This document shows positions 16,374 through 64,000 of a DNA stretch of 64,000 bases, piece after piece. The notes beneath the pieces are model-generated. The model was not told the DNA's origin, searched no databases, and saw nothing but the letters and a program-made list of their open reading frames with translations. The position numbers were made by a program, and so were the translations under genes. Source of the stretch: Nitrospirota bacterium (GTDB lineage Bacteria; Nitrospirota; Thermodesulfovibrionia; Thermodesulfovibrionales; UBA9159); assembly GCA_963699545.1 (NCBI GenBank), contig CAVOUE010000003.1:320001-384000 (forward strand). The letters run 5' to 3'. The stretch's first letter is position 1, and every line of letters starts with the position of its first letter.

Positions 16374-16395
16374 CCGGATGGACACTTCCCCTGCA

Positions 16396-35165: not shown

Positions 35166-35335
35166 AGAAGAAGAGATTTCCACCTTTGAGAATATCACCT
35201 TAGAGCAGACACACACCACAGCCTTGACAGGAACCAACCAGACAAAAACCAGACAATTACCCAATTTAAAACATTTGGGCTTATTGTTGCAAATCCTCAA
35301 AGTATGTTATTTTATATAGCATTGTAGTTCAGAGA

Positions 35336-35414
35336 GGGGCTGTAGCTCAGTTGGTCGGTACGACTCGTGCCGAGGAGAGCGGTCGATGCGACAGGTCGCC
35401 GGTTCTCTTCCGGT
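35336..35414 (+). other. tRNA-Ala mimic, left part
   Basis: GGGGCTG TA GCTC AGTTGG [TCGGTACG-ACT-CGTGCCGA] GGA GAGC G [GTCG-ATG-CGAC] AGGTC GCCGG-TTCTCTT-CCGGT; no local acceptor 3' strand. Confidence 0.8.
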
Positions 35415-35429
35415 GTAGAACATCAGTTT

Positions 35430-35505
<76 letters not shown>

Positions 35506-35516
35506 GACGATTGACC

Positions 35517-35762
35517 ATGCCTTTCTATGTTTATGTCCTCAGGAGTGAGAAAAGCGGCAGATCTTATATCGGCCATACTGCCGATCTCCCGAAGCGACTT
35601 GTCGAGCACAATATCGGAAAGAGCAAAGCCACAAAAGGGAAGGGACCATGGCGGCTTGTATATCGGGAGGAATTCGAGACCCGATCGAGGGCGTCTTATC
35701 GGGAACGGCATTTCAAATCAGTCAGCGGCAGGATGGAGCTAAAGAATAAGGGGATTCTCTAA
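35517..35762 (+). CDS. Small GIY-YIG nuclease family protein (81 aa)
   Basis: FYVYVL.S....SYIGHT.DL..RL.EHN.G....T....PW.LVY.E.F.....A..RE..FKS. Confidence 0.92.
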   Translation: MPFYVYVLRSEKSGRSYIGHTADLPKRLVEHNIGKSKATKGKGPWRLVYREEFETRSRASYRERHFKSVSGRMELKNKGIL

Positions 35763-35950: not shown

Positions 35951-36142
35951 TTATTTGACCGCGACCAGAGCAAGTCCCAGTTTTTTCTCCAGATCCCTTA
36001 ACTGGGCTATCTCATCGTCTTTCAGGGGAGTGATACCAATATCCTTGCATGAAAAAGCGACGACGGTTTTCCCCATCTTCTTCTCCAGTGACTGGACCGC
36101 TTTGAGCTTCTCTCCGTCAAGCTGCGCAAACGTGCATAACAT
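35951..36142 (-). CDS. Small internally duplicated protein (63 aa)
   Basis: SD AAGGAGG; two copies of L..E.L..V..LEKK.G...VA. Confidence 0.75.
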   Translation of the reverse strand: MLCTFAQLDGEKLKAVQSLEKKMGKTVVAFSCKDIGITPLKDDEIAQLRDLEKKLGLALVAVK

Positions 36143-36244
36143 AGCTGCCTCCTTTTCTCTCAGCATAGTTGACACGGAGCAGGTTGTCAAGGTCCGTATG
36201 CGCACCCCCTTTGTCTCTCCTTGCCCCTTCGATTATAATAGTCC

Positions 36245-36844
36245 ATGTCCGCAGGAGAGGAAAAGGTGTGGGAAACCCTCGCAAGCCTCGACCCGGGTGA
36301 AGTGTGCAGGAGGACGGATTCGACCTTTGACGCGGCGTCAGGTCTCTACATGCTGAAATCCTTCGGCAGAGATTTTTCCGTTTTACCCGGGGAGAAGAAG
36401 ATATTCAGCCATTCACCTGACGGCGAGATCTTTTTGCAGAGACTTGGCTATTTTTTCAGACTCTCGGTCGTCGGGTATCTTGCCATTGCCAGGGACGTTT
36501 CTCCCACAGGACGCATTGTTACCCCGGTGAACATGAAAAGCGGACAGCTCTTTTTCAGGGGGTCACATGTTCTTCCCCTTGACAGGGTGGCTGATAGGTA
36601 CGGCAATGACAGGGAGGCGTTTCTGAAGAGAGGCAACGAACTGGGCGGGGAAAGGCTCGGGTACGGCGACGCTTCGGTAAAACTCCTGCCGCTTCCGCGT
36701 GTTGCCGTGGTCGCGATCCTCTGGACAGCGGACGATGAATTCCAGGCCAGGGCCGATCTCCTGTTCGATTCCTCCTGCGAGATCCAGTTGCCCATTGATG
36801 TTGTCTGGTCCATCGCGATGCTCAGCACGCTGGTGATGGTTTAA
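36245..36844 (+). CDS. DUF3786-like protein
   Basis: G..FFRGSH.LP, GDAS....PLPR.....LW..DDEF.A....LFD. Confidence 0.8.
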   Translation: MSAGEEKVWETLASLDPGEVCRRTDSTFDAASGLYMLKSFGRDFSVLPGEKKIFSHSPDGEIFLQRLGYFFRLSVVGYLAIARDVSPTGRIVTPVNMKSGQLFFRGSHVLPLDRVADRYGNDREAFLKRGNELGGERLGYGDASVKLLPLPRVAVVAILWTADDEFQARADLLFDSSCEIQLPIDVVWSIAMLSTLVMV

Positions 36845-36921
36845 AGCCGCACTCTTTTTGATGCAGGAGCCGGCATGAGCGCCCCTTGACAGGAATCTTC
36901 CCTGAAGGTTTTAATAGAAAG

Positions 36922-37716
36922 GTGGATTTGACCGATCTCAGCGCCAGGAAACCCCTGCTTACCCTGCTTCGGGTGCAATGCATCGTCTTCCTCCTTGTGC
37001 TCCTTGTTGCGTCCTGTTCTTCAAAGAAAGTGGTGAAGACTGACGAGACCTTTGACCCTGAGAGATCTCTTGCCAGAGGAACAGAACTCATTGAAAAGAA
37101 GGAGTACGAAGAGGCGCGCAAGGTGCTTCTCGAGGTGAAGAACAGGGACCTCACGAAGAAACATGCTCCCCTTGCACAACTGAAGATCGCGGATTCGTAC
37201 GTGAGGGAAGAAGAGTACGATGCAGGTATTGAAGAGTACCGGAAGTTCCTCGAGATGTACCCTGACCATAAGAATGCGTCCTATGCCCAGTATCAGATAG
37301 CCATGGCGTCTTTCGTCCAGATAGAAAGCCCCGAGAGGGGCTATGGCGCTGCAGCGAAGGCCTTGAATGAGTTCGAGAAGCTGAAACGGATGTTCCCCCG
37401 GAATCCATACAGGGAGATGATCGAGCTCAGGATCGAGAAATGCAGGAACACCATGGCAGACTATGAGTTCCTTGTCGCCGAATTTTACTTCAAGAAGAGT
37501 TCCTACACTGCTGCAGCGGGGAGGTTCCAGCAGCTTCTCACCAAGTTCCCCGATTACAAGAAAGGGCCCCTGGTCCTTTACCGTATCGCTTTCTGTTATA
37601 AGAAGCTCGGCAACAAGGATAAGGCCCTGGAATACTATACCCGCCTCATCGAAAAATACCCCAATGACAACGTCATTAAAGAAGCCAAGAAAGAGTTCGC
37701 CTCCTACAGTAAATAG
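36922..37716 (+). CDS. bamD: Outer-membrane assembly lipoprotein BamD
   Basis: Lipobox VASC, AQL.IAD.Y, F...YP.H....YA.Y, E..VA.FY.K...Y.AA..RF; GTG start inferred. Confidence 0.85.
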   Translation: MDLTDLSARKPLLTLLRVQCIVFLLVLLVASCSSKKVVKTDETFDPERSLARGTELIEKKEYEEARKVLLEVKNRDLTKKHAPLAQLKIADSYVREEEYDAGIEEYRKFLEMYPDHKNASYAQYQIAMASFVQIESPERGYGAAAKALNEFEKLKRMFPRNPYREMIELRIEKCRNTMADYEFLVAEFYFKKSSYTAAAGRFQQLLTKFPDYKKGPLVLYRIAFCYKKLGNKDKALEYYTRLIEKYPNDNVIKEAKKEFASYSK

Positions 37717-38353
37717 GGAATATTATCCTGCCTTTCTGAACATCGCCGGCCGGCAGTGCGTGATCATCGGGGGGGGAAAGGTGGCGGAAAGAAAGTGTTC
37801 GGGCCTTCTCAGAGCCGGCGCACGGGTGACGGTCATAAGTCCCGGGATCACCCGGTCGCTTGAGCGGTCCAGGGAAAAGGGACTCCTGAACCATGTCAGG
37901 CGCCGCTACCGGAAAGGGGACCTGCGAGCCGCCTTCGCCGTCATTGTCGCTACAGATTCGGAGGCGACGAACCGGCAGGTGGTGACCGATGCTGCCGCGG
38001 CTGGCGTCCTAGTGAACGTTGCGGATAATCCCTCCCTGTGCACTTTCATAGCTCCTTCCGTCCTGACAAGAGGGCCTTTGACCATAGCCATTTCAACAGG
38101 TGGTGTCAGCCCGGCAATGGCGCGCACCATAAGAAGGGAACTTGGGCGGATGTACGGTGCTGAGTTTTCAGGATATCTGAGGTTCGTGAAAGGAATAAGG
38201 AGAAGGGCGCTGAGAGAGATGAGCGAGAAGAGGGAGCGGGAGCGATTCCTGAAGGGACTTGCGTCAGAAGAGATGATGGCCCTCCTGCGCCGGCAGGGGT
38301 TTCGGGAGGCAAGGAAGACCGCCATGAAACGGTGGCAGGACCTACGACGATAG
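37714..38353 (+). CDS. Precorrin-2 dehydrogenase / sirohydrochlorin ferrochelatase (SirC/CysG-N); start codon not evident
   Basis: YYPAFLNI.G..CVIIGGGKVAERK, VNVAD.P..C.F..P, IAISTGGVSPA.A..IR. Confidence 0.88.
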
Positions 38354-38436
38354 CTTTGCAGAGGCCCGCTTTTTTTGCCGCTGAACAATGCCATGGCGAA
38401 GTGCAAAATCTTTTGCATGATGTATAATTAAAGAGT

Positions 38437-39189
38437 ATGCCAGATAAGAAGACCATAAGAATGACATCGAAGCTCGGTTCCGAGTTCGACTCAGAAGTGA
38501 TCGCAGGGAAAGAAAAATATCTTGTGCAGACAGAGGACTGCGGGGAGAAGAGACCTCTCATCATCACCCGCATATACTTTGGCGGGCAGATCTTGCTGAC
38601 GAGGAAGACCGACTACAGCGACATGCTCGATGCCTCTGACAGGGAAGCGAAGGTGCAGGAGCTTATGCAAAAACAGCACCGTCAGACTGTAAACTCTGTC
38701 AGGGGGGGTAAGTTTAAGAGGGCAAAGACCACTGCGGAGTACATTGAAGAGGCGAAAGAACTTCTGAAGGGCAAGAACAAGAGAAGCGCCCTCAGGGTGC
38801 TGAGCGACGCAGTGGAACATTACCCTGACGATCCGTTCATCCTCTCCTATCACGGTTGCCTTGATGCTATTGCCAACAAAAACTACAGGGAGGGAATCGA
38901 TGCATGTCTTCTGGCCATAGAGGTCTTGAAGAAGAAGGTGCCCTTCGGTGAGGATTCCTTGTTCCCTGTTTTTTATCTCAACCTTGGAAGAGCCTATCTT
39001 GCGTCAGGGAAAAGGAAGGAAGCCATGACTGCGTTTAACAAGGGGCTTGCCATTGACGCGCAGAACAAGGACATTCTGTGGGAGATCAGAAAGCTCGGCA
39101 TAAGGCAGAAGCCCGTCGTCCCTTTTTTGAAGAGATCAAATCCCATCAACCGTTACATCGGCATAATGCTCCACGCAATGAAGAAGTAG
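38437..39189 (+). CDS. TPR-containing protein
   Basis: N-terminal Y.VQTED domain; C-terminal TPR (FYLNLGRAYL); G.R..PV.PFL.RSNP.N. Confidence 0.75.
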   Translation: MPDKKTIRMTSKLGSEFDSEVIAGKEKYLVQTEDCGEKRPLIITRIYFGGQILLTRKTDYSDMLDASDREAKVQELMQKQHRQTVNSVRGGKFKRAKTTAEYIEEAKELLKGKNKRSALRVLSDAVEHYPDDPFILSYHGCLDAIANKNYREGIDACLLAIEVLKKKVPFGEDSLFPVFYLNLGRAYLASGKRKEAMTAFNKGLAIDAQNKDILWEIRKLGIRQKPVVPFLKRSNPINRYIGIMLHAMKK

Positions 39190-39229
39190 TCTGCTAGATT
39201 GCCCCCCGGACATTTTCCCCCGCGCTTGT

Positions 39230-39775
39230 CTATTGAGACTGAGCCATCTGCTTCAGGAGTTCCGCGATCTTCCTTGCGATCAAATCCGGCAGGAGATCCC
39301 TGTTATCAAGGGTTACCTCATGGATTTCAATATCTTCCCTCTTTTTTATCCCCAGGAGAAAATCATCGCCGCCAAAGGTGATGGTGCCAACAACGATATT
39401 CGGAGAGTCAAGGGCATGGAGTGCGGCCTGTCTGAAGACTTCAGAAAAACATTCCATCTTGCCGATCTCATCAAGTATGATGACATTCCTGCTGACGGGA
39501 GTGATGGAGGGGACGGCAATGGTCTCGATGTTCTCAATGCTTACTCCATAGCGTCTTATATGGAATCGAGACCTTATGTCCTGATGGGCAAGGTGCCCCT
39601 TTCCGCCGTCAAGGGTCCTCATCAGAAAGCCAACCCTTCGTCCTTCTACTCTCTCCTCTTCTGTGTAAAATCCATTGGCGGGAAAACCGAGATCCTGGAT
39701 CACTTTCTTGATGACGGTCGTTTTCCCTGACGAAGGCGCGCCCGTCAGGAAGATATTTTTCTTTACTGGGCTCAT
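39230..39775 (-). CDS. NTPase (THEP1/NTPase_1 family)
   Basis: IFLTGAPSSGKTT, GFYTEE.R..G.RVGF, IILDEIGKME. Confidence 0.92.
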   Translation of the reverse strand: MSPVKKNIFLTGAPSSGKTTVIKKVIQDLGFPANGFYTEEERVEGRRVGFLMRTLDGGKGHLAHQDIRSRFHIRRYGVSIENIETIAVPSITPVSRNVIILDEIGKMECFSEVFRQAALHALDSPNIVVGTITFGGDDFLLGIKKREDIEIHEVTLDNRDLLPDLIARKIAELLKQMAQSQ

Positions 39776-40028
39776 AGGAATAATTGTAACCGAAGGAGGG
39801 GATGAAGAGAAGTGAGGAAAGACCCTCCCGCTCTCCCGCTGATCGAGCCGACCTCATACTATAGAATTTAGATAGAGTGAAAGTGAAAAGGGCAAGGGTC
39901 TACTTCGCTTGATGGGATCCTTTTAATAATGCAATTACTGAAGCTTAAGTGCTGAAAGTTGTCATAATTGAAATAGCAGTGCCCTGCGCATGCCTCCCCT
40001 GGGCTTGTCATATGGGCCATATCGCGAC
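39745..40028. repeat. Island repeat copy 1 (75-bp core + modules A, B, C)
   Basis: 39745-39819 is identical to 41925-41999; 39821-39849 matches 45675-45703 at 27/29; 39979-40028 is similar to 45731-45781. Confidence 0.9.
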
Positions 40029-40046
40029 AGGAATCTTTAAGGGAAC

Positions 40047-40925
40047 TTAGGGTTGTGTAATCTTATTGATACGTTTAGACCGCTTATGCTCGTACATTGA
40101 TTTGTCTGCTTCTTGAAGAAGTACCTCAAGGGAACATGGGCTCTGGGGATCAAAGTGTGCTGAACCCATACTAATGGAGAGCACGTATCCTCTGCTTCTT
40201 GTTGAGTTTAGAGTTTCCAGGTCATTCTGCAATCGCGACGTAAGGACGTCGCTGCGTTATCCTGAAAATGTCCGTGCGGAGAGTACGACGAATTCGTCGC
40301 CGCCAACGCGGGCACTGATGTCAGCCTCTCGATAATTTTTCCTGAGGATATTCGCGATCTCTACTAACGCCTGATCGCCCTCAATATGACCATGCACATC
40401 ATTAATTTCCTTTAGGTCATCTAGATCAGCATAAAGGATATATATCCCTTTCTTGTTTCTTTTTGCTATCTTTAACTGGTGTTCAGCCAAAGCAAACAAT
40501 CCCCGACGGTTCAAGAGTCCTGTGAGGTCATCGGTAAGCAGAAGTCCACGGGTTTGTTCTTGACCTTCGGCATGCTTTATCCTTGCCAAGAGCTCTTTTA
40601 GCGTAAAAGGTTTCTTGATAAAGTCGGACGCTCCGGCTTCAATGGCTTTATCATAATTGAAATCATCGATATGTCCGGTCATGGTAATAACGATTATGTC
40701 AGGGCTAAGTTGCTTGACTGCTGCGGTAAGTTCAAGACCTGTCATGCCGGACAGTGCAATGTCTGTTATGACAATGTCGAAAGAGGTTTTGCCTAAAAGG
40801 TTGAGAGCCTCTTCGGCATTCGGGGCAGTCTCACAGTGATAACCGTTTATCGACAAACCTTCCGTGAGCACGTTGAGCATGATTTGATCATCTTCAACGA
40901 TCAGTATCGAGCTTATTTTATCCAT
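40047..40925 (-). CDS. REC-GGDEF diguanylate cyclase (in-frame TAA at 40257-40259)
   Basis: ILIVEDD/ITD/FIKKPF receiver, D.LTGLLNRR, RVGGDEF; the C-terminal SISMG...ADKSMY..K follows in the same frame after the stop. Confidence 0.85.
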
Positions 40926-40932
40926 TCCAGGG

Positions 40933-41843
40933 TCAGGAGTCACTGTCGGCTTCTTCAACAACTCCGTGGAAATTGAGCGAAGGGGGAGTGCCCCTTTTTT
41001 CGCTTGAGACTTTTACCTCGCTGGGTCTAGGCTTCAGCCTTGCGGTTGTGTGCCACCAAAGATTTGACCACTTCCCATCCGATCTTATTCATTTCAGCCA
41101 TTTTAGTGATTTCCTCTAACGCGGTCCTGTTGTCGTATGAGACAGCTCGGTAAGGCCTCGGGGAGATAAGAGCATCGTATACGTCACATACAACTATTAT
41201 CTCCACCATGCGGTCTGTGAGCTGTATCCCGCGGGGCATGCCTGAACCATCTTTCCTCTCGTGATGATCCCTCGCCACTATGGCGGCAATGTTCTTTTGG
41301 ATCCTTATGAAAATAGCTGAGAAGGACATATCCTGCAGTGGTATGATGATCTATGATGCTCTTTTCAGTCCTAGTGAGCGGGGTGACTTTTTTTAAGATA
41401 TGCAAAGGAATGCAGATTTTACCAATATCATGAGTAGGGCCAGTCGAAACTTCATTTATCCACTCCGGATAATCAGGCAACAGATCTCTGGCAATCAATG
41501 CAGAAAGAGCAAATACCATAAGGACGTGGCAATATGTATGGTAGTCGTTTCTCTTGAAATAATCCAGTGACTGCAAAACGGGAATGACGAGGTGAACCTT
41601 CTCCAGCATGGTCATGACTTCTGCAATTTTCTCCTGACCAGAGAAAATCAAATCGTATGGAGGTCTGCTTATTTGACGGAGCAGGTCATGTTTTACCATG
41701 CCATATTCGAGCAATGGATAGGTTTGATAAGATGTTGTCTTGCTTGAAGAGATCAAATCCTCTAACGTCTCCGTTGAAAGGACAGTGCCGGCCGGCAGCA
41801 ACAGTTGGTTATCCAATGTGTGAACAGGGTAATGGAGTCTCAT
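40933..41843 (-). CDS. HD-GYP-type phosphodiesterase (two apparent frameshifts)
   Basis: TYCH, THDIGKI, HHT..G, HHER.DGSGMP.G, CDVYDALIS.RPYR. Confidence 0.8.
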
Positions 41844-41924
41844 AGCATCCTTAAAAGGTTTCCGGTTCTATATTAGGCAAATGCTCGACTTTTTTCAATA
41901 GCATGATGTCAAGAAGAAAGCATA

Positions 41925-42140
41925 TCAGGAAGATATTTTTCTTTACTGGGCTCATAGGAATAATTGTAACCGAAGGAGGGGATGAAGAGAAGTGAGGAAG
42001 GGCTTTCCCGCTCTCCTGCTGACCGATTCTACCTCATATGAAGAAATTTGGGATAAAGTGGAAATGGAGGGGGCAGGGGTTCACGGCTTTTGGACGGAAT
42101 TGTATTAATTAACGAAGTTATGAAATTGAGATGCTGAAAT
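41925..42140. repeat. Island repeat copy 2 (duplicated promoter and first 10 codons of the NTPase gene + modules A, B)
   Basis: 75-bp exact match to 39745-39819, then decaying similarity to 39820-39957. Confidence 0.9.
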
Positions 42141-42179
42141 ATTAGCTCTCAGTGTATTAGAGCAGTTATGAAGACACTG

Positions 42180-42785
42180 TCAAGTGGGAGATCCCTCCGA
42201 CCGAGGCTCAGATAGCTCTTTTGCGAGTTTTTTCAGTTCTCTGAGTAGACTGGCTAAGGCGTCAAATTGTATGGATTTATCAGCGATGGAAACTCCATCT
42301 CCGCTTTGAGTCAGCATAAGCATGGGCATTCTACCTCTGACAAACCTGCCGTCCGCTATCATTTCATCCATATGCTCGACTATGTCTCGGATGTCAACGA
42401 AGGCTTTGGTATAACTGTTGATAATCTTTCTGGTTGTTCGAGGGATTGCTGGGCTTCCTTTATGACTTTTCAACCTGTCAATGAAGCGCAATGCACGCCT
42501 GACACTATGGATGCAAGTTTCCATATGTGCGACTGACCGGAAAAGAGCAGATAGGGGCAACAGTGCACCATCTCGCAGGGTTGCTACTTGCTGAAGATAT
42601 GAAGATCGAGCCTCTTCGTATTCAAAGACAGCTTTGTCCACGATTCGAATAAGATTGTGGGCGTAAAACCAGACTTGATCGAGGTCTTGCCTCCACCTCC
42701 CGATAAAAATGTTGAGGACGGTATCAGGCATTAGCGGCTCGTTGATAGAAGATAAATCGGGCATTTTAAGTTTAAGAGTGGCCAT
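42180..42785 (-). CDS. Hypothetical protein
   Basis: 201-aa helical-looking ORF containing an RDIVEH (Rx4H) motif, possibly HEPN-like. Confidence 0.65.
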   Translation of the reverse strand: MATLKLKMPDLSSINEPLMPDTVLNIFIGRWRQDLDQVWFYAHNLIRIVDKAVFEYEEARSSYLQQVATLRDGALLPLSALFRSVAHMETCIHSVRRALRFIDRLKSHKGSPAIPRTTRKIINSYTKAFVDIRDIVEHMDEMIADGRFVRGRMPMLMLTQSGDGVSIADKSIQFDALASLLRELKKLAKELSEPRSEGSPT

Positions 42786-42802
42786 TCGTCTGCTTTTTTT
42801 CT

Positions 42803-43027
42803 TTAATCGAAGCTATTTTCGTTGGGGGCGTGAGCGTTCAGCAAGTCAATTATTTCGTCCAGTTTGTCATTCATGGCCTCAAAGAATTGAGCTATAGTTG
42901 ACAGAATATACATGCCAAAAATGGCAGCAACATATAGCCGCCAAGGGTCAGGTAGTTGTGAGACGACTGCGAGGCCGAGGAAGAATACTATAAATTTCCA
43001 CCAACCTGCTTTTCTGATCTTTCCCAT
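42803..43027 (-). CDS. Small two-TM hypothetical protein
   Basis: SD AAGGAGG; two hydrophobic segments and an acidic amphipathic tail. Confidence 0.65.
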   Translation of the reverse strand: MGKIRKAGWWKFIVFFLGLAVVSQLPDPWRLYVAAIFGMYILSTIAQFFEAMNDKLDEIIDLLNAHAPNENSFD

Positions 43028-43148
43028 GCTCCCTCCTTATGCTCGAAGTTGTAGTGAACTCGGTGATGGTTGATCCATTTCTCTTCAAGTTTTTGTTTGA
43101 AATGTACAACTTCTGCGAAGTTCTGTCAACGAGAAGCAGACTATCTTG

Positions 43149-43197
43149 GAAAATTCGGGATAAAGTGGAAGGGGCAAGGGTTTACTGCGTTGGATGG
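43149..43197. repeat. Island repeat copy 3 (module B only)
   Basis: Shares GGGATAAAGTGGAA with copy 2 and GGGCAAGGGT with copy 1. Confidence 0.6.
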
Positions 43198-43408
43198 CGT
43201 ATCGTTGGTAAATCAGCTTATGTCTCTGAGACGTTGAGGACACCGACAAGTCGAGAGTTCATACGAAACCAAACTATGGCGGATTTCTGAAAGAAATTTA
43301 CGGTAACATCAGCAATCAGTCAGCCGACGGCCCTGCGGGTTGGCGACATTGCATTAGATCTCCGTAGTTCTTTTTGTTTTTCTTGGCAACGCCGCTATTG
43401 ACCATTTG

Positions 43409-45400
43409 CTAGGCAGGATTGGTTTTACCCTCCAGCCACTTACGGAAGCGCTTCGTTAACGCTATCTCTATTTGTGCACGCGTCTCTCCAACGTGACGCA
43501 GTACTCCAGCCAACTCAAGAAGAACGAAGACTACCACGCTAAGTCCGATGAAGATTCCAAAGGGGCCGCTATGAAACGGATGCATAACAATGAGCGCCAC
43601 CGCACCTGTCACAATGAAAATGGCCACTCCCCACTGCAATATATAGGACAGGCCTCTTGCCCAACTGCGGGCGCGGCCCTCCATTACGAGAGCCTGCTTC
43701 CGGGCACGTTCCGCAGATTCTCGATCAACAGTGTCTGCGCGTGCGATTGCCTCACGCTCCCTTGCTTGAGAGGCGGCAAGTTTATTTTCGTAATCTTCCG
43801 TTATTGTACGAACTCGGTCTTCAGCCTTTGCGGCGTAGCCCTCCCTGACTCTTTCGACAACTTCGTCCAAAGACGTTGCATCAATATCTTTGGAAGTGTC
43901 GTTTTCAAGCTCGGCATCTCTCAGTAGTCTATCTGACATCGAGGAAACGAGAATCGCTGTAACCTCATCGGAGTTAAGCCTATTAGATTCCTGTAATCTG
44001 TCAAGATGACGTAGAAACCTTCTCCATGTTCTCTGTGACGGCCGCAATGCAACGGAGCAGAGAGCCACGAGTTCCTGAACCTTGAGGTTCACGGCAAGAG
44101 ACGGCTTCTTCAGCCAAGCTATATTAGTGAGTGCCCGGATGTGCACAACTGGCGGAACTCCAGTTTCATGCTCATCTTCTTCCCACCAAAGTCTTGTGTT
44201 GAGAATAACGCGGGGAGAAGAGGTAGCGAAGATTGCTTTTGCGTCGTCCAGGCTTGAAGAACGGTGACCCTTCCGAAGAGTTATAGTTGCCGCGACACAG
44301 TCAACATCATGGAAAACCCGTGGCTCAAATTCGTCCTTTTTAGTCGGATCAGCAAGCCTGGCCGCGAGAGCTTTTTCTCCTGAGGTGTATTTATGTACAT
44401 GGGTTGGTGTTTGCATAATTTGGAATCCACTCGAACGGACTTCAATTTTTAACAGGGCTGACATCTCACGGACATCGCTTACCGAGTATTGCTGAGTAAG
44501 GAAATGTCGAGACATGGGGTCAGCTCGCAGCGATCGACGGCCTTCTGACGTGGCTAACCGGACTTCGAACATTGCGAGAATTCGCTGGATTTCCTGAATC
44601 GTCTTATCGAGGACTAGACATTGAACTCCATTCGCCTTTAGAACATCAACGCTTTCTCTCACGAGGGTTTGCATTGCCGTGCCCTCATAGCCAAGCGCTT
44701 GCCGAACAATGTTGCTGTCAAAAATCACGAGTAAATCCTTAAAGCGATGAGTTATTCTACTCATATCAGGCAGAAAAGCGGCGTGGTAAAGGACTAGCCC
44801 TTCGAGCATCTCACGAAGGATCTTTGCCAAAGTCGGGTCTTGATAAACACAATCGCAGATGAATGCGGCAATAGCATTCCGCTCTCTTTGCCCTCCACTT
44901 CTTGTCTCTGACAGTTTAGGAGTGCCTTCAATCAGCATTCCAACCTGCTCTTCATCGAGGAAGCTGAGCAGCATCTCCAGTGCAGCGTCTTCTGTTTCGA
45001 TTGTTATCCCGAACTTCTCGGAATAGAGTTGCAGAGCCCTTCCGAGGCGACGTTGCTCAGCTTCAATCTGTGATTTGCCACTAGCTACGTTTATCTGTGG
45101 AAGAGCTTGATTTGGATTCCGTTGATATCGACCTGCGTCACGCAGAAGGATTTTCTTTTTGATGAGTCGCTGTAACAGCGTCGTCATTGTTTGTATTGGC
45201 ATAGCGATTCCATGCCGCGTAGCCAGTGCTTCCTGTATTTCGCTGGCAATGAAGCTTCCGTTGAATTGCGTGATAACGTCGATAATCAGAGGAATGAAAA
45301 TACCCAAGTGATCGTTGCCCTCATCGAGCAGTGCTTTCAGATAGGCAACCGTCACCAACGCACCAGGTCGAGTTCTGAGATCCTCTATTGTTGTAGGCAT
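43409..45400 (-). CDS. 663-aa protein: wHTH-like N-terminus, PIN-like core, coiled coil, two C-terminal TM helices
   Basis: LVIFDSNI, T..EI, HD..C, IFATS motifs in PIN order; SD AGGAGG; hydrophobic pair near the C-terminus. Confidence 0.6.
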   Translation of the reverse strand: MPTTIEDLRTRPGALVTVAYLKALLDEGNDHLGIFIPLIIDVITQFNGSFIASEIQEALATRHGIAMPIQTMTTLLQRLIKKKILLRDAGRYQRNPNQALPQINVASGKSQIEAEQRRLGRALQLYSEKFGITIETEDAALEMLLSFLDEEQVGMLIEGTPKLSETRSGGQRERNAIAAFICDCVYQDPTLAKILREMLEGLVLYHAAFLPDMSRITHRFKDLLVIFDSNIVRQALGYEGTAMQTLVRESVDVLKANGVQCLVLDKTIQEIQRILAMFEVRLATSEGRRSLRADPMSRHFLTQQYSVSDVREMSALLKIEVRSSGFQIMQTPTHVHKYTSGEKALAARLADPTKKDEFEPRVFHDVDCVAATITLRKGHRSSSLDDAKAIFATSSPRVILNTRLWWEEDEHETGVPPVVHIRALTNIAWLKKPSLAVNLKVQELVALCSVALRPSQRTWRRFLRHLDRLQESNRLNSDEVTAILVSSMSDRLLRDAELENDTSKDIDATSLDEVVERVREGYAAKAEDRVRTITEDYENKLAASQAREREAIARADTVDRESAERARKQALVMEGRARSWARGLSYILQWGVAIFIVTGAVALIVMHPFHSGPFGIFIGLSVVVFVLLELAGVLRHVGETRAQIEIALTKRFRKWLEGKTNPA

Positions 45401-45661
45401 TCGCCGATATCCTCCTAATCTACTGCAACGTTATCTGACTTCATAGAACGCAACATCTTGTATGTATAAGTTTGATTTAACATAGATTAGACGGATTCTC
45501 TTATATCATAGATTCCGTATAGCATCTATATATGCCGCACTTGGCCCATTTTTTGGCTTTTAATGTGGATAGCGCAATGTCCCCAAAGGCGACTACCATT
45601 AATAACTTACACTTTTTCGAACATTTTGAAAAGCGCGGACTTCGGGAAGGAACGATTTCTG

Positions 45662-45781
45662 GCGAGGGAGGCGGGACCCTACCGCTCTCCCGCTGACCGA
45701 GCCAGAAGGGGGAGGACAGGCGCAAAGGGCGTGCCCTGCGCGTGGCCTCCCCTAGGATTGTCATATAGGCCATATCTCAAC
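45662..45781. repeat. Island repeat copy 4 (modules A + C)
   Basis: gaccctaccgctctcccgctgaccgagcc and gtgccctgcgcgtggcctcccctaggattgtcatataggccatatc match copy 1. Confidence 0.8.
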
Positions 45782-45823
45782 GAGAGATTTGCCAGGGCGA
45801 GCACGTCTCTTAATTGAGTCGAT

Positions 45824-46226
45824 CTATAGCCCGTTTTTTTGAAGGCTCTTAAGAGTTTGCCAGGTGTTGCTGCCTGGCAGACGGCACTGCCAAAAGATCA
45901 ACCCATTTACGGAGGTGCCAGTGATCGAATGAGCTGCAGCTGATGGAGAACTTGAATCTATCGCCATTTGCGACCAATGAACCGTTGTCGACCTTGCCCT
46001 CATAAAGTTTCCCCTTGTGAGGTGCTCTGAGTTCGGTGCCATGGGGGAGAGTAATACCTCTGGAAACCCAGGGGATGCCATTAAGCTTGGCGGGTTCTTT
46101 CGTCTTTGCTAACAAAGGTAGTTCAAGGACGCGTCTAAGAACACTGTTATAGGTGTCGGCGTCATCCGTGAGTAAACTTGTCAGCTTCTTGTAGACATCG
46201 AAATCAATCGGTATGGTTGTGTACAT
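45824..46226 (-). CDS. RHH-like + RAMA/DUF2924-like DNA-binding protein (+1 frameshift near 45948)
   Basis: TIPIDFDVYK.L...DTYNSVLRR, LP.GTELR, F.SPSAAA..ITG..VNG..FW; SD AAGGAGG and a TTGACA-N17-TATTAT promoter. Confidence 0.7.
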
Positions 46227-46470
46227 TGTCTTATCCTCCTTAATGTAATATATAGCGCTCAGCACTATAAGTTAATAATAGCAGTAAACGGAGATGATGT
46301 CAAGAAAAAAATGCGGGGAAGATTGTCTCCAGCTTATGGCACTACGGCTCGACGCGGGTCTTATTGCAGGGAAAGCGGTTTTCCTGCAATAACGGCGCAT
46401 GTTATTGCGATCTGGAGAAATTAGATTCGCTCAGCGTCAAGAAGATTGACGGGCGGCTGGACATCTGGAA

Positions 46471-46503
46471 TAAAAAGGGGATTACGGAATCCCGTAACCC
46501 CTT
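46471..46503 (-). terminator. Intrinsic terminator downstream of tRNA-Arg
   Basis: Minus strand AAGGGGTTACGG-GATT-CCGTAATCCCC-TTTTT. Confidence 0.65.
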
Positions 46504-46509
46504 GAAACG

Positions 46510-46615
46510 GATCGTGAGCGCATTCCCGCAGCTTTCTGCGGGGTGAGTGAGGGAATATAATAAGGACAATTCCCTGCGTTAAGATACCCTGCGGTTTCGC
46601 CGCAGGGTATCTTCA
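46510..46615 (+). mobile_element. IS200/IS605-end-like two-hairpin non-autonomous element (PATE/REP-like)
   Basis: Hairpins CCCGCAG-cttt-CTGCGGG and AAGATACCCTGCGG-tttcg-CCGCAGGGTATCTT ending in TTCA; sits between tRNA-Arg and its terminator; no transposase present. Confidence 0.5.
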
Positions 46616-46623
46616 TTTTAAAG

Positions 46624-46697
46624 TACCCCCTGCAGGAATTGAACCTGCGACACCAGGTTTAGGAAACCTGTGCTCTATCCAACTGAGCTAAGGGGGC
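46624..46697 (-). tRNA. tRNA-Arg(CCT), CCA not encoded
   Basis: GCCCCCTTAGCTCAGTTGGATAGAGCA-CAGGT TT CCT AA ACCTG-...GTTCAATT...AGGGGGTA. Confidence 0.95.
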
Positions 46698-46746
46698 GAA
46701 AGAAAGCTGAGAGCTTACAGCTGTCAGCTTACCGCAAATCAAAGAC

Positions 46747-47202
46747 CTAAGACTCCAGAATCTCGAAGACCTTCTTCACTGCGTCTTCTGCATTATCTGC
46801 CGGTATGACACCCTTGATGTCCCATGTTTCTATGCCGACTACGGGCTTTCCCATCTGGAGTGCAAAGGCTATCTCTGAAAGTGTTCCATACTCACCACCG
46901 ACGGCGATAACAGCATCCGCAGTGCGCGCTATAATAACATTTCTGCCGATTCCCAGTCCAGTTACTATGGGGATATCAATATACGCGTTTACGTCCCTCT
47001 TATGGTCCTGGGGAAGTATTCCGACGGTGAGACCTCCCTCTGTCCTGGCCCCTCTTGAGACCGCCTCCATGACGCCGGTGAGACCGCCGCAGACAACCAC
47101 GGCATCTCTTCCGGCAATCAATCGGCCGACCTGTTCAGCCTCCCTCAGAAGTCTTTTCTCGACCTTCCGTCCGCCGATCACTGATATCAGTTTCCTTGAC
47201 AT
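46747..47202 (-). CDS. TIGR00725/SLOG family protein
   Basis: ISVIGG, CGGLTGVMEA..RGA, TVGILP, RNVII, GGEYGTLSEIAFAL. Confidence 0.9.
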   Translation of the reverse strand: MSRKLISVIGGRKVEKRLLREAEQVGRLIAGRDAVVVCGGLTGVMEAVSRGARTEGGLTVGILPQDHKRDVNAYIDIPIVTGLGIGRNVIIARTADAVIAVGGEYGTLSEIAFALQMGKPVVGIETWDIKGVIPADNAEDAVKKVFEILES

Positions 47203-47212
47203 GGACACCATT

Positions 47213-47482
47213 TTACCTCTTATGTTTTCTCCTATCAAGGACTTCAGCGAGGAGGGGAAAGAGCAGGGAACCTCCAGGCAGGAAGAAGACTGCCATGACA
47301 GGAACGGCCCCCGATATGCCCCGCAGGTGGCCCTTCAGTTCACGCTTCTCCTCTCTTGTCCACGGAAGGCCTGTGTTCCGATGCTTCATGAGGAGCTGCA
47401 TAAGTCCCCGGACCTCAAGGACTTCCTTCAGGATGAACTCCCTGTTACCGGTGATGAGCCTTTTGATGTAGTTCAGCAGCAT
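47213..47482 (-). CDS. Small hypothetical protein
   Basis: GLMQLLMKHRNTG..WT.EE, LPGG.LL.P.LA..LDRR; start uncertain. Confidence 0.7.
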   Translation of the reverse strand: MLLNYIKRLITGNREFILKEVLEVRGLMQLLMKHRNTGLPWTREEKRELKGHLRGISGAVPVMAVFFLPGGSLLFPLLAEVLDRRKHKR

Positions 47483-47522
47483 CTCCCCCTGAATGTACCA
47501 GGACAGTGAAAGAAAGAAGAGA

Positions 47523-47599
<77 letters not shown>

Positions 47600-47648
47600 A
47601 TAGTGAGTCCCCCAAAAGTCCGCCGACTTTTCGAGGACTCCAGCCCAA

Positions 47649-47746
47649 TGGCGGGAGCGTGTGGGAATCGAACCCACCCTGCCCGCTTTTGGCAGGCAAC
47701 ACTGGATTTGAAGTCCAGGAGGGACACCAGAACCCTATGCGCTCCC
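47649..47746 (-). tRNA. selC: tRNA-Sec(TCA)
   Basis: 98 nt; CTGGA CT TCA AA TCCAG anticodon arm, long variable arm, extended acceptor stem, GCCA end. Confidence 0.95.
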
Positions 47747-47993
47747 AGGCATACATAATACTGCATTTGCCGATGTCCTGGCAACTACGGTTTTTTGCGG
47801 GAATCGTGAGTGGCGTGAAAATATTGCGAAACGATTATAAAAGAAAGGCGGATAGAAACGAGCGGTTTAGCTGAAAGCCGAACCGGAGGCCAAATTACAG
47901 AATGAGTCGGTTCAAATCCCTGTTGTTGAACAGCCCATCTTGCCGGTAGTGCGGCTCCGGGTCTTCTCCCTGGCAGGCCCGGGAAGCACTACG

Positions 47994-49277
47994 CTACTTT
48001 TTTCCGAGGGCTCTTTCCACGGTCTTTATGGCGCAGAACTCCCCGCACATGCTGCATACCTCCGCGACAGAGGGAGGAACCTGTCCTCTCCACTCCCTCA
48101 CTCTGTCAGGGTCAAAGCTAAGGGACATCTGTCCTTCCCAGTCGAGGTTCTTCCTGCACTGAGCCATCTTCCTGTCTTTCTCGATGGCGCCGGGTATCCC
48201 TTTCGCAATATCTGCAGCGTGCGCCGCTATCTTTGAAGCGATCACCCCCTCTCTCACGTCGTCAATGTTGGGGAGGCGTATATGCTCGGCAGGAGTCACA
48301 TAGCAAAGGAAGTCAGCACCTGCGGCACCTGCAATGGCGCCTCCTATGGCTGCGGAGATATGGTCATAGCCCATCCCGATATCGGTAACCAGGGGACCGA
48401 GCACATAAAAGGGTGCGCCTTTGCAGATCTCTTTCTGCAGTTTTATGTTCAGTTCCACCTGGTTCAGAGGAACATGTCCGGGACCCTCTATGATCGCCTG
48501 GACACCGGCAGCAAGGGCTCTGTCTCTCAGTTCACCAAGGGTGACCAGCTCTTCGATCTGGCTTCTGTCCGTTGCATCCGCGAGGCAGCCGGGCCTGAAT
48601 CCGTCCCCCAGGCTCAAAGTCAGGTCATACTTTCTCGCCATCTCCAGGAGCCTGTCATACTGTTCAAAAAGGGGATTTTCCCTGTCATTATAGATCATCC
48701 ATTCAAGGAGAAAAGCCCCCCCTCTGCTCACAACGTCGAGGATCCTTCTGTCTTCCTTCAGCCTCTCTATTGCCTTCCGCGTGACACCGCAGTGGACTGT
48801 CACAAAATCCACGCCGTCCTTTGCATGTCCCTCGATCACCTCGAACAGCTTATCGGGACTCATCTCTGCGATATGTCCGTGCCTTTCGGTCGTACTCACC
48901 ACGGCTTCGTAGATGGGGACTGTCCCGACAGCAACAGGAGACTTCTTAATGAGCGTGTTTCTTAAATCTTTAATAGCGCCTCCCGTGGAGAGGTCCATGA
49001 CCGCATCAGCCCCATATTTCGCCAGGACTTCAAGCTTCTTTATCTCCTCATCATAGGAAACCCTGTCTTTTGATGTGCCGATATTTGCATTGATCTTCGT
49101 CCTCAGCCCCCTGCCGATCCCGAGGGGGGTGATATCATGGAACACGTTTCTGGTGATAACGGTTACCCCTTCAGCAATGTCGGACGCAAGCTTCTGAGCG
49201 GAGGTGCCTTCGGCCTGTGCAACCGCCTCCATCTCTGCGGTAACGATCCCTTTTCTTGCCAGTTCTATCCTTGTCAT
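47994..49277 (-). CDS. thiC: Phosphomethylpyrimidine synthase
   Basis: TKINANIGTS, MDLSTGG, GTVPIY, SRGG, EGPGH, GYDHI, CYVTPAEH, CSMCG.FC. Confidence 0.97.
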   Translation of the reverse strand: MTRIELARKGIVTAEMEAVAQAEGTSAQKLASDIAEGVTVITRNVFHDITPLGIGRGLRTKINANIGTSKDRVSYDEEIKKLEVLAKYGADAVMDLSTGGAIKDLRNTLIKKSPVAVGTVPIYEAVVSTTERHGHIAEMSPDKLFEVIEGHAKDGVDFVTVHCGVTRKAIERLKEDRRILDVVSRGGAFLLEWMIYNDRENPLFEQYDRLLEMARKYDLTLSLGDGFRPGCLADATDRSQIEELVTLGELRDRALAAGVQAIIEGPGHVPLNQVELNIKLQKEICKGAPFYVLGPLVTDIGMGYDHISAAIGGAIAGAAGADFLCYVTPAEHIRLPNIDDVREGVIASKIAAHAADIAKGIPGAIEKDRKMAQCRKNLDWEGQMSLSFDPDRVREWRGQVPPSVAEVCSMCGEFCAIKTVERALGKK

Positions 49278-49296
49278 AGTTATTCTCCTCGCCCCC

Positions 49297-49938
49297 TCAA
49301 GAGTGATGGGGATCACCCACGGTTCTTAAATACCCCTCCGTTGCCCCTTTAATATCAGCCTCGCCCAGAATGCCGCTGATCAATGCAATCCCACGGGCTC
49401 CCGCATTCATTACTTCCTTAACCCTGCCGGGGGATATGCCACCGATGCCAAAAACAGGAAGAGAGACCTGTTCACTCACCAGGTGCAAGGCCCCTATTCC
49501 TACAGGCTCTCCATATTTCCGCTTGGAGGGCGTGTCATACACAGGTCCGAAGGTGATAAAATCCGCTCCTTCCCTCTCTGCGGTGCGTGCCTCCTCGGGG
49601 TCGTGAGTCGAAGCTCCGATGAATAATCTCCTGCCCACGATCTTTCTTGCCGCACCTACAGGGATCCCCGCCCGGCCGAGGTGTACCCCGTCAGCCTCCA
49701 CGCACATGGCGACATCAACTCTCTCATTGATAAAAAGCAGTGCACGATATTGTGCGGTGACTTCTCTCAGCCTGTATGCCAGTTCAAGGAGTTCCCGTAT
49801 CGGCAGATCCTTCTCCCTCAACTGGACAGCCCTTAAGCCCGCCTTCAGCGCATCCTCCACGGCAGTGATGAGCGATGAGTGACGCGCAATGAGTTTCCGG
49901 TCGGTGATCAAATATAAATTGAAATCAACTATGTTCAC
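49297..49938 (-). CDS. thiE: Thiamine-phosphate synthase
   Basis: LYLITD, VQLREK, INER.D.A, GVHLG, GASTH, GPVY.T.SK, GIGGI. Confidence 0.95.
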   Translation of the reverse strand: MNIVDFNLYLITDRKLIARHSSLITAVEDALKAGLRAVQLREKDLPIRELLELAYRLREVTAQYRALLFINERVDVAMCVEADGVHLGRAGIPVGAARKIVGRRLFIGASTHDPEEARTAEREGADFITFGPVYDTPSKRKYGEPVGIGALHLVSEQVSLPVFGIGGISPGRVKEVMNAGARGIALISGILGEADIKGATEGYLRTVGDPHHS

Positions 49939-49962
49939 TCATACCTTTTGCTGGTGCGGCAG

Positions 49963-50736
49963 TTACAGCATTCCCTCTATCGGACTGCTCGCTGTGGCAT
50001 AGAGCTTTTTCGGTATCCTTCCCGCTTTGTATGCAAGCCTGCCGGCGATGACCCCATGCCGCATAGCCTCCGCCATGGACAGAGGATCCCTTGCTCCTGC
50101 GATAGCGGTGTTCATTAAGACGGCGTCGCATCCCAATTCCATAGCGAAAGTGGCATCAGAGGCCGTTCCGACTCCTGCGTCAACAATGATAGGGACCTTT
50201 GCCTGTTCGAGTATGATCTTTATGTTGTACGGGTTTCTGATCCCGAGCCCTGAACCGATGGGTGCGCCAAGGGGCATCACGGCCGCGGCGCCCGCATCCT
50301 CCAGTCTCTTCGCCATGATCGGGTCGTCATTGGTGTAAGGGAAAACAATGAAACCTTCCTTTGCCAGTATCTCCGTCGCCGTCAAAAGTCCCATGGTATC
50401 GGGAAACAAGGTCTTTTCATCCCCTATCACCTCCAGCTTCACCATGTCCGAAACCCCTGCTTCCCTTGCAAGGCGGGAGTATCTCAGGGCATCTTCAACC
50501 GTATAACAGCCGGCGGTGTTGGGAAGTATCTTGTATTTCCGCGGGTCGAGATAATCAAGAAGATTTTCGGATTTCCTGTCAGTGATGTTCACCCGCCTCA
50601 CCGCCACAGTCACCACATCCGCACCGGATGCCTCGATCACTTTTCTTGTTTCCTCGAAATCCTTGTATTTCCCGGTGCCGATCCAGAGTCTGGACCTGAA
50701 CTCTATGCCTTTAATGATCAATGTGTCTTCCATCAT
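49963..50736 (-). CDS. thiG: Thiazole synthase
   Basis: [44 protein letters not shown]. Confidence 0.97.
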
Positions 50737-63042: not shown

Positions 63043-63750
63043 GTGCGCATGAAGGAAAACATTGTTGCCATAGTGCCGGCGGCTGGCCTGGGAACGAGGT
63101 TCAGCCCCGGTACCAATAAGCCCTTCCACATGCTCCTTGGCAAGCCTCTCATCGTCTGGTCCCTTGAGATCCTCGAGATGCTTCATGAGATAAAGGAAAT
63201 AATCCCCGTGCTGAAGGAGTCCGACCTGGAGACAGGTGTGGAGATCTTTGAGCGCCACAGCCTTTCAAAGGTAAAGAGGATCGCCCCAGGGGGAAAGGAG
63301 AGGCAGGATTCGGTATATAATGGCCTGAAGCTTGTTAAAGACAGGTCAAGCGTAGTGCTCATTCATGATGGCGCGAGGCCCCTTCTCGATGGCGCTATGG
63401 TGAAGACCGCTCTCAGCGCTCTCCCGGGTTTTGACGGCGTGATCGCAGGTGTTCCGGTAAAGGACACCATAAAGGAAGTGCAGGACAGCGTGGTGAAGAG
63501 AACGTTAAGACGTGAGACGCTGTGGGCTGTCCAGACGCCGCAGCTCTTCCTTTATGATTCCCTCATGAAGGCATACGATGCAGCGATGGAAGAGAATTTT
63601 TATTCGACTGACGATGCTGCGTTGCTGGAACGAAGCGGGGGCAGGGTCAGGGTGGTTATGGGGTCGTATTCCAACATAAAGGTCACCACGCCGGAGGATA
63701 TACCCTTTGCAGAACAATTGTTGCGGGAGAGGATGAAGCCCGGAGAATGA
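63043..63750 (+). CDS. ispD: MEP cytidylyltransferase
   Basis: PAAG.GTR, GG.ERQDSV, IHDGARP, QTPQ, TDD, NIKVT.PED. Confidence 0.95.
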
Positions 63751-64000
63751 GAATCGGTATCGGGTATGATTCCCACAGACTTGTTGCGGGGAGGAAGCTC
63801 ATTCTGGGAGGCGTCGAGATCCCCTTTTCTCGGGGGCTTCTGGGCCACTCCGACGGCGATGTGCTTTGCCATTCCATCATTGATGCCATCATAGGCGCTT
63901 TGGGAATGGGTGACATCGGGACGCATTTTCCGGATTCGGACCCGAGATGGAAGGATGCTTCAAGCGTAGAAATGCTGAAATACATCGTTGAACTCGTTCG
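63747..64000 (+). CDS. ispF: MECDP synthase (truncated by the window end)
   Basis: [27 protein letters not shown]...DA..GA...GDIG.HFPD. Confidence 0.95.

Follow-up and report, generated by a model that had tools for sequence, protein, structure and literature searches.

What assembled the array of accessory genes that lies beside a tRNA-Arg(CCT) gene in a Nitrospirota chromosome, in a region where no recombinase gene is found? The array occupies part of a 64,000-nt stretch, positions 320,001-384,000 of contig C3 (C3:320001-384000; hereafter the window), in a metagenome-assembled genome (MAG) of 13 contigs that is 86.9% complete with 5.1% contamination. The window is core chromosome near dnaA, dnaN and gyrB. 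Between an NTPase gene and the tRNA it carries six cargo genes, all on the minus strand as an earlier note drawn from the sequence alone had described, together with four partial copies of one non-coding repeat family composed of modules A, B and C (Table 1). We propose, with a probability of roughly 60%, that the array is an integrase-less, partly decayed mosaic remnant of a family of small integrative elements, situated in a strain-variable island 3' of tRNA-Arg(CCT). DNA has been inserted at the tRNA, its modules are homologous to integrase-linked units elsewhere, and the window holds neither int or rep homologues nor attachment-site (att) repeats.

The insertion is seen by comparison with a genome of the same genus (G001, contig C90), in which both flanks are syntenic at 82-89% identity and the NTPase ortholog, 86% identical in amino acids, adjoins tRNA-Arg. 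There, 35 nt lead from the end of tRNA-Arg(CCT) to the sequence 18 nt upstream of the NTPase start, and the interval from the tRNA to the NTPase gene is free of all three modules. Because this site is empty, positions 39794-46622 of the window (6.8 kb) represent extra DNA at the tRNA 3' end. Insertion at a tRNA 3' end and absence from a close relative, the marks of a tRNA-gene island, are thus both observed. The locus also behaves as the hot spot that the earlier note had supposed: the site is empty in G001, and other genomes carry HicAB, Fic, AbiU2, PIN or PLDc_N genes at the same tRNA.

The repeats themselves are not a product of chance. A repeat search over positions 38000-48000 recovered module A at 39811-39849, 41991-42029 and 45665-45703 (79-85% identity), module C at 39979-40028 and 45731-45781 (81-86%), two pairs for module B, 39880-39915 with 43162-43197 (83%) and 42044-42063 with 43151-43170 (95%), and a 125-nt repeat pairing 39745-39869 with 41925-42049 at 89%. 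When the intergenic stretches (ig1-ig5) were aligned locally and compared with 500 mononucleotide shuffles, no shuffle (0/500) reached the scores of ig1-ig2, ig1-ig3, ig1-ig4, ig2-ig3 and ig2-ig4, so that every module-sharing pair beat all shuffles and the four partial copies reported before stand. The score of ig3-ig4 was reached by 299/500 shuffles, and this pair has no module in common, as the earlier module scheme predicts. No shuffle (0/500) reached the score of ig2-ig5 either, a similarity that we put down, from reading both sequences, to a common promoter-like TTGACA stretch. The four junctions have the module sets A-B-C, A-B, B and A-C, with no single common site, and a blastn search of all 13 contigs with the five intergenic stretches found no copy of A, B or C outside the locus.

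Related sequences do occur in other members of the order. We ran BLAST searches with copy 1 and with the corresponding unit of genome G183 over 317 genomes of the order Thermodesulfovibrionales (Nitrospirota), a comparison that the earlier note had proposed. Copy 1 gave short, high-identity matches to C and A in other families; the G183 unit matched 16/317 genomes at E<=0.001. C and/or A were confirmed by motif in 13 of the 317 genomes, from three families (f1, f6 and f12), across which the two modules are about 90% conserved. A scan of genome contigs with a strict C pattern returned six loci, all from Nitrospirota/Thermodesulfovibrionales and five of them already known from the BLAST search, and a scan of metagenomes with the A pattern returned one contig; viral contigs scanned with the C and A patterns gave 0 matches each. 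In the 13 genomes the unit measures 120-330 nt, is rich in hairpins and lies between variable cargo and a divergent operon of RHH protein, in some cases excisionase (Xis), and tyrosine integrase.

The pieces are joined into a single unit of about 290 nt in four genomes (G183, G185, G198, G205) and in one metagenome contig (L062). Its parts follow in the order C core, roughly (C)CGTTGAGATATGGCMTATATGAYAARCCCAGGG, GC-rich three-helix hairpin, conserved middle hairpin and A hairpin, the last followed by TACTTCCTG. The C-A order and strand are constant in G183, G185, G198 and L062, and C is degenerate in G205. The window copies approach these sequences closely: C1 is 94-96% identical to the C of G012 and G183, and A4 is 88-95% identical to the A of G185, G205, L062 and G183. 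Copies 1 and 2 match each other in blastn over 156 nt at 85% (E 3e-44). Copy 1 has a decayed 3' arm in its A hairpin, and of the GC hairpin found after C in relatives it keeps a short stem only; in copy 2 the 3' arm of the A hairpin is likewise degenerate. Modules A and C are thus pieces of a structured non-coding unit belonging to elements that target tRNA-Arg. Module B is a further, separate conserved non-coding module of about 90-110 nt, and its sole clear relative lies 1.2 kb beyond A in G185 (L050:3545-3640). Matches to an 18-26-nt B core with <=4 mismatches were found at 2 of 11 other loci, both in unrelated contexts, and were counted as chance.

This comparison changes how the repeats are to be understood. 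They had been taken for the ends of a recombinase-free cassette system, and this did not hold: they are fragments of the backbone of tyrosine-integrase elements, and the junctions have no common site. The other possibility that had been raised, fragments of a known insertion sequence or of a decayed gene, was right in spirit, as these are mobile-element fragments, but the element family itself appears undescribed. A literature search limited to Thermodesulfovibrionales integrases and tRNA found no prior description of it, and the unit has no match in Rfam.

The association of the unit with tRNA genes is recurrent. Eight genomes (that of the window, G012, G183, G186, G198, G088, G226 and G223) have it on the strand of a full tRNA-Arg(CCT), at a distance of 0.65-2.3 kb on the 3' side. 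In G184 it is found within a 5.1-kb element bounded by two tRNA-Arg 3' fragments and containing int and Rep, in G186 perfect 46-nt tRNA repeats stand 5.1 kb apart, and in G192 C is located about 260 nt from a tRNA-Arg 3' half. G185 uses tRNA-Leu instead, and L062 may have a tmRNA as target, the Rfam match to a tmRNA 3' end being weak (E 0.0085, 15.8 bits vs a gathering score of 47). On the strand opposite the unit we observed a full-length tyrosine integrase (G184, G185, G088, G223, G079) or its remnant (G183, G226, G198), an RHH protein of 99-107 aa (G183, G185, G079, G192), an excisionase (G185, G223) and an HUH Rep with visible HSH and YxxKY motifs (PF23343; G183, G184, G088, G079). The genes directly 5' of C or 3' of A encode HicAB (G183, G186, G198), Fic (G012), AbiU2 (G183), PIN (G088), PLDc_N and GIY-YIG (G226), a TPR protein (G184) and products of no named family. 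The source of the window's array would thus be small integrative elements present across Thermodesulfovibrionales, in whose backbone an operon running from the RHH regulator through an optional excisionase to the tyrosine integrase beside the tRNA diverges from the unit and the variable cargo behind it, sometimes with an HUH Rep. Compact elements of 4-5 kb combining int, a small regulator, an HUH Rep (PF23343, with a weak RepSA match) and a C unit were also noticed in three genomes (Table 1); from their gene content they would be small integrative rolling-circle elements in Nitrospirota.

What the window has lost is equally informative. PF00589 has six matches in the genome and none in the window, and none of six recombinase-type families or query proteins checked was found there. 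A Pfam/NCBIfam search of the 59 non-overlapping open reading frames (ORFs) of >=100 aa gave no match to a recombinase or transposase family among the scanned ORFs; 52 of the 59 were counted as scanned, 12186-12800 and 12878-14374 were in fact scanned too, five overlapping-frame ORFs (15843-16478, 35307-35711, 36822-37154, 46805-47509 and 63683-63985) were left out, and part of the scan listed matches at E<=1e-20 only. The absence of a recombinase gene from the window, already remarked upon from the sequence, is thereby upheld. In tblastn searches, the Int, Rep, RHH and excisionase proteins of relatives had no match in the island, and their Rep none in the window's genome. Integrases encoded elsewhere in this genome share 27-33% identity with the island integrases of relatives. 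Moreover, no 20-mer of the tRNA recurs with <=4 mismatches within 39776-46600. G088, G223, G184, G183 and G226 have, at the corresponding position, a complete or remnant integrase gene of the kind missing beside the tRNA in the window, and a far-end direct repeat of the tRNA 3' part, also missing in the window, exists in G186 (46 nt, 100%) and G184. Tandem accretion or a cis-mobilisable element would leave att sites between and around the joined elements, and none were found. Because the island has no match to int, Rep or RHH and no tRNA-fragment repeats, it does not show the att-element-att-element anatomy of tandem accretion. Two candidate vestiges of the target were rejected: local alignments of module A as a displaced tRNA 3' end and of the CT-rich stretch after A as the native G001 spacer were not better than shuffles (p values 0.026 and 0.057, for a 13-17-nt CT-rich match).

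The way in which the blocks were arranged has left its own signature. Positions 39745-39819 are identical to 41925-41999 at 75/75 nt, with a sharp drop in identity beyond, the neighbouring sequence being about 70% identical. This patch spans codons 1-10 of the NTPase gene, the 18 nt in common with G001 and the island edge up to the apex of A. A piece of the island/chromosome junction has thus been copied in situ onto a unit that was already divergent. Such a copy is what template switching or homeologous recombination would leave, and not what a site-specific cassette event would. One could also imagine an array with no mobile element at its origin, in which the native sequence upstream of the NTPase gene was duplicated locally and genes came to lie between the duplicates: copy 2 matches copy 1 at 100% identity over the start of the NTPase ORF (31 nt) and the 44 nt before it, and the rest of this genome has no A, B or C. 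However, the modules are lacking between the tRNA and the NTPase gene of G001, A and C lie beside integrases in other families of the order, and beyond the 75-nt patch the resemblance between copies is only about 70-89%. We regard purely local duplication as very improbable.

Comparison between genomes points to exchange at the unit, as homology ends on either side of C. HicAB and C are common to G183 and G186, which differ in the sequence after C; G186 and G192b are 94% identical over C and the next 150 nt and differ before it. A whole block may also have moved recently. The HD-GYP gene with its 89-nt promoter region (40933-41932) is 90% identical over 1002 nt to a locus in a different genus (G009, L089:1497-2495), where the gene is an intact 302-aa ORF in another context, and the block is 80% identical to the genome of a third genus and 76% to that of a fourth. 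As thiC is 71% identical between genera, the 90% identity of the block suggests recent between-genus transfer of precisely this 1 kb. Among the sequencing runs listed, only three DNA runs contained 5-7% of the sampled words, and no RNA run appeared among them. Contigs of relatives are roughly 85-99% (mostly 85-95%) identical to the window and carry the GGDEF/HD-GYP block, none of them spanning the whole stretch; in one run the block has other flanks at 40061 and 41919. In one such contig (X3) the NTPase-A1 segment is joined to a B resembling B3 (joint 39857 -> 43154). We considered this joint as proof of a deletion form and rejected it, since it is better read as a relative whose NTPase-proximal B resembles B3. 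Module mosaicism and the 75-nt duplicate make it plausible that the conserved non-coding segments serve as substrates for homologous recombination. Of the two drivers of gene capture that had been suggested for this locus, homologous recombination thus remains plausible, whereas a trans-acting recombinase of integron type finds no counterpart among the integrases of relatives.

Taken together, we infer that an integrase would have inserted an ancestral element at the tRNA, that the int module would then have been lost, and that homologous or template-switch recombination between the conserved units would have brought in, swapped and duplicated cargo blocks. The coordinates of the locus are collected in Table 1.

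Table 1. Features of the tRNA-Arg(CCT) island and its flanks in the window, and compact elements of related genomes (positions given with their contig).
Feature	Position (strand)	Remarks
NTPase (THEP1-like) gene	39230..39775 (-)	native chromosomal flank of the island; PF03266, E 5e-42
Unit copy 1	39776..40035 (-)	C1 39992-40030, B1 about 39860-39965, A1 39805-39855
RR-GGDEF (response regulator) gene	40047-40961 (-)	PF00072 and PF00990 on two ORF pieces
HD-GYP gene	40933-41843 (-)	block to 41932 including the promoter region; PF01966/PF13487
Unit copy 2	41925..42145 (-)	B2-A2 plus duplicate of NTPase codons 1-10 and 44 nt upstream
Two-ORF cargo block	42180..43027 (-)	201 aa 42180-42785; 74 aa 42803-43027
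Unit copy 3	43143..43229 (-)	module B alone; about 90 nt align to the B of G185, 0/500 shuffles
663-aa cargo protein	43409-45400 (-)	widespread uncharacterised family
Unit copy 4	45640..45790 (-)	C4, compact GC hairpin, intact A4 hairpin; best-preserved copy
138-aa cargo ORF	45849-46265 (-)	slot taken by int or toxin-antitoxin genes in relatives
tRNA-Arg trailer	46478..46622 (-)	three-hairpin multi-copy element and terminator-like hairpin; not in G001
tRNA-Arg(CCT)	46623-46697 (-)	integration target; ARAGORN and Rfam
Compact element of G184	L052:7368-12512
Compact element of G088	L083:1041-5537
Compact element of G079	L086:340-4134

The cargo had been described as signalling or defence-like, and the first part of this description stands with the RR-GGDEF and HD-GYP genes. 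The other four proteins (201, 74, 138 and 663 aa) have no family in Pfam, NCBIfam, PHROGs or PADLOC beyond weak matches, and the single link to defence is a weak PADLOC match of the 663-aa protein to LeoBC (E 7e-4). This protein has 191 homologues at E<=1e-5, of which the best 120, its own protein aside, are 45-66% identical; four named records come from Bacteroidetes, Terriglobia, Chloroflexi and Acidobacteria, and some sources label the homologues 'predicted transcriptional regulator'. For the 138-aa ORF, Atlas gives leads only, to RAMA/SeqA_N-like clusters (0.86-0.89). It had also been stated that a repeat copy follows each block downstream. The copies are indeed there, but since in intact relatives the unit precedes cargo of the same strand, 'followed' is a matter of how blocks are assigned.

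The reading frames of the cargo are not all intact. The RR-GGDEF gene has an in-frame stop at 40257-40259, and relatives' contigs are without 2+1 bases present in the window at 40255 and 40274/5; the HD-GYP gene is frameshifted near 41300 and 41037. As the stop and both frameshifts fall at bases missing from relatives' contigs, all three may be assembly artefacts. Elsewhere in the window (9288-11439), gyrA is distributed over at least two ORFs, 9288-10457 corresponding to model positions 134-439 and 10525-11439 to positions 498-797. The prfB ORF (2115-2858) covers model positions 114-353 only, presumably as expected from the programmed +1 frameshift of release factor 2.

Promoter-like sites, scored as consensus matches, precede three of the four blocks: 46303-46275 (11/12, with TG), 43129-43101 (10/12) and 41898-41870 (9/12). 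In total such sites are not more frequent than in shuffled sequence (11 found vs 9.5 expected). The word ATGATGTCAAGAARAAA is common, on the plus strand, to the promoter regions of the HD-GYP gene (41905-41925) and of the 138-aa ORF (46295-46315); read on the minus strand, the region shows a TTGACA -35 box and a T-rich upstream tract. Between the last of these genes and the tRNA, directly 3' of the latter, lies a three-hairpin element of about 120 nt (46496-46622) that looks like a repetitive extragenic palindrome or a miniature inverted-repeat transposable element. At least four more near-full copies (C1:45456-45570, C5:447583-447699, C6:77324-77445 and C3:240675-240787) as well as partial ones are present in the genome, in both orientations.

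Co-oriented cargo separated by structured non-coding repeats inevitably recalls integrons. Under such a scheme the unit, a C core with a variable hairpin, would be a folded site for a recombinase acting in trans, and cargo would be inserted one gene at a time. In 11 of 12 aligned C copies homology starts at (C)CGTTGAG / GTTAAG / GTTGAA, and in 8/12 the core lies about 10-60 nt after the end of an unrelated gene on the same strand, or just overlaps it. The place exactly upstream of C is occupied by HicAB in G183 and G186 but not in G192b, a conserved core followed by a hairpin of variable sequence is reminiscent of attC, the integrase of relatives is divergent from the cargo as in integrons, and all cargo genes of the window point the same way. 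An attC site is an imperfect palindrome in which an inverse core and the core GTTRRRY are found at each cassette end. The C copies instead begin GTTGAGA / GTTAAGA / GTTGAAA, with A as seventh base, and by eye we saw no inverse core partner. Two integrases of relatives are not IntI: they score 58.6 and 43.7 bits on TIGR02249 (cut-off 265) and 42.8 and 30.8 on NF011946 (cut-off 435); the window itself has no tyrosine recombinase, and the distant ones of its genome lie elsewhere. The junctions differ in their module sets, only one block is flanked by the same module on both sides (B3...B2), and the B3 and B2 junctions are without C. The cassettes of an integron, or of a cluster of attC sites lacking an integrase (CALIN), are mostly promoterless and read from one common promoter, whereas three of the blocks have promoter-like matches of their own, with the reservation on their total number given above. 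Finally, part of the perfect 75-nt duplicate is NTPase coding sequence, and a site-specific event would have left this uncopied. An integron-like platform is hence distinctly unlikely.

We return to the unit of the integrative elements and to what it may do. The unit consists of a conserved block of about 35 nt with a very sharp 5' edge, followed by hairpins whose sequence varies and whose pairing is kept. Units fold far better than dinucleotide shuffles on both strands (z -2.1 to -8.6). A structured regulatory RNA, that is a leader or small RNA heading the cargo operon, with each window copy controlling the block behind it, is one way to explain this. In intact elements the unit does lie on the cargo strand between the divergent promoter region and the first cargo gene, two positions keep G-U pairs in 4/4 sequences, and the sense strand of G183 gives z -3.66, with 0/200 shuffles as good. 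In G186 and G192 (L053:1804-1951 and L056:1992-2143, copies 94% identical), a short hairpin comes after C, then a CA-rich stretch and lastly a hairpin that resembles a terminator and has a T run, an arrangement that looks like a small-RNA gene of about 150 nt. However, the preference for the sense strand seen in G183 failed across six units: the antisense, which is the int/rep-sense strand, folds as well or better, being the more stable in 5/6 units with RNA parameters and in 6/6 with DNA parameters. Rfam (release 15) gave no match at E<=1 in window positions 36000-50000 and none at E<=5 in seven relatives' loci, and covariation is weak. The A hairpins are broken in copies 1 and 2, copy 3 is B alone, and there is no convincing promoter before C, promoter-like sites being about as numerous in shuffled sequence. 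We find control of each window block by such an RNA unlikely.

For the unit in general, a cis-acting structured element of the mobile element is the most likely description. Our best guess by analogy is a site resembling a single-strand origin (sso). An sso-like or other site acting at a DNA stage is the role we would tentatively put first, at clearly less than even odds; a leader or small RNA and a role of some other kind appear doubtful to a similar degree, and a recombinase site is rather unlikely. According to the parts of PMC5703833 that treat rolling-circle replication plasmids, RS_B is a conserved recombination site within an ssoA that varies elsewhere, and shuffled cassettes lie between sso and rep. 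The likeness, on that account, is to a 150-300-nt non-coding region with long imperfect hairpins and one conserved block, separated from rep by shuffled cassettes, and this arrangement would be the closest described counterpart that we found; C would then play the part of the conserved RS_B block, in a resemblance of layout with no known sequence similarity to any described sso. The orientation of the unit relative to rep is the same in 4/4 Rep-bearing elements, but it is equally fixed relative to int. It is tempting, if unlikely at present, to go further and regard the C core, its variable hairpin and the A hairpin together as a cis-acting site of a new kind in Nitrospirota chromosomal islands, one that would act in a single-stranded or nicked-DNA stage as origin or recombination site (compare RS_B/ssoA and attC), with unrelated cargo joined precisely there and trade in cargo outlasting the loss of the integrase.

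Other known systems resemble the locus in part. The literature (for example PMC3146451 and PMC4891358) describes tRNA-gene genomic islands that undergo tandem accretion or decay, among them integrative and mobilisable or cis-mobilisable elements. The window has in common with them the site at a tRNA 3' end, the absence from a close relative and the variable cargo, and its relatives add the tyrosine integrase and excisionase beside the tRNA and direct repeats of the tRNA 3' end. It differs from them in having no integrase and no att repeats between blocks or at the far end, its internal repeats being a structured backbone segment; without integrase and att repeats it is by definition neither an accreted array nor a cis-mobilisable element. 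Elements of the pSAM2 type, which combine int, xis and RepSA in tRNA genes in the sections concerned of PMC3218068 and PMC2440964, are approached by four elements of relatives that pair int with an HUH Rep matching RepSA weakly. In contrast to these and to rolling-circle plasmids, the elements measure 4-5 kb with no transfer gene seen, and their host belongs to Nitrospirota and not to Bacillota or Actinomycetota.

Phage satellites and defence islands are hot spots for cargo in which a conserved backbone surrounds a variable slot. The relatives match this picture with a single slot holding HicAB in three genomes and elsewhere Fic, AbiU2, PIN, PLDc_N or GIY-YIG. The window differs in its cargo, with one weak defence match, and no capsid- or helper-related genes were seen.

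Several observations weigh against the interpretation of the array as a decayed remnant of integrative elements, or against parts of it. The empty site was seen in one same-genus genome (G001), the other same-genus genome being without an NTPase match, and a precise deletion of the island in G001 could in principle replace insertion. Integrase-mediated entry is inferred from relatives only, as this genome holds no intact element of the family. The absence of tRNA-fragment repeats argues against simple tandem accretion and demands later deletions. The split of the essential gyrA makes assembly indel errors likely and the other frameshifts of the window doubtful. The C core begins very sharply just past the stop codons of genes that have nothing in common (HicA, Fic, GGDEF and the 138-aa ORF), with a variable hairpin behind it, and a site-specific or nick-type recombination site would look like this. 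With regard to the sso-like role, Rep is present in 4 of the 14 unit-bearing loci (13 genomes and L062), so that this function, argued by analogy, would rest on the Rep-bearing minority of elements, and compensatory changes affect 2/41 predicted pairs in an alignment of four sequences and 3/17 in one of six.

A tRNA-gene island as such is ordinary, and the interest of this locus lies mainly in its unexplained unit. What is new is a non-coding unit without Rfam match that marks the cargo slot of widespread 4-6-kb integrative elements carrying int, RHH and sometimes Rep. Should the unit be no more than a leader or relic, the locus would be a well-documented example of island decay. A function in recombination or replication, if borne out, would account for the continued exchange of toxin-antitoxin, abortive-infection and signalling genes by islands that have no integrase, and the C core could then provide a sequence handle for finding cargo slots in uncultured Nitrospirota.

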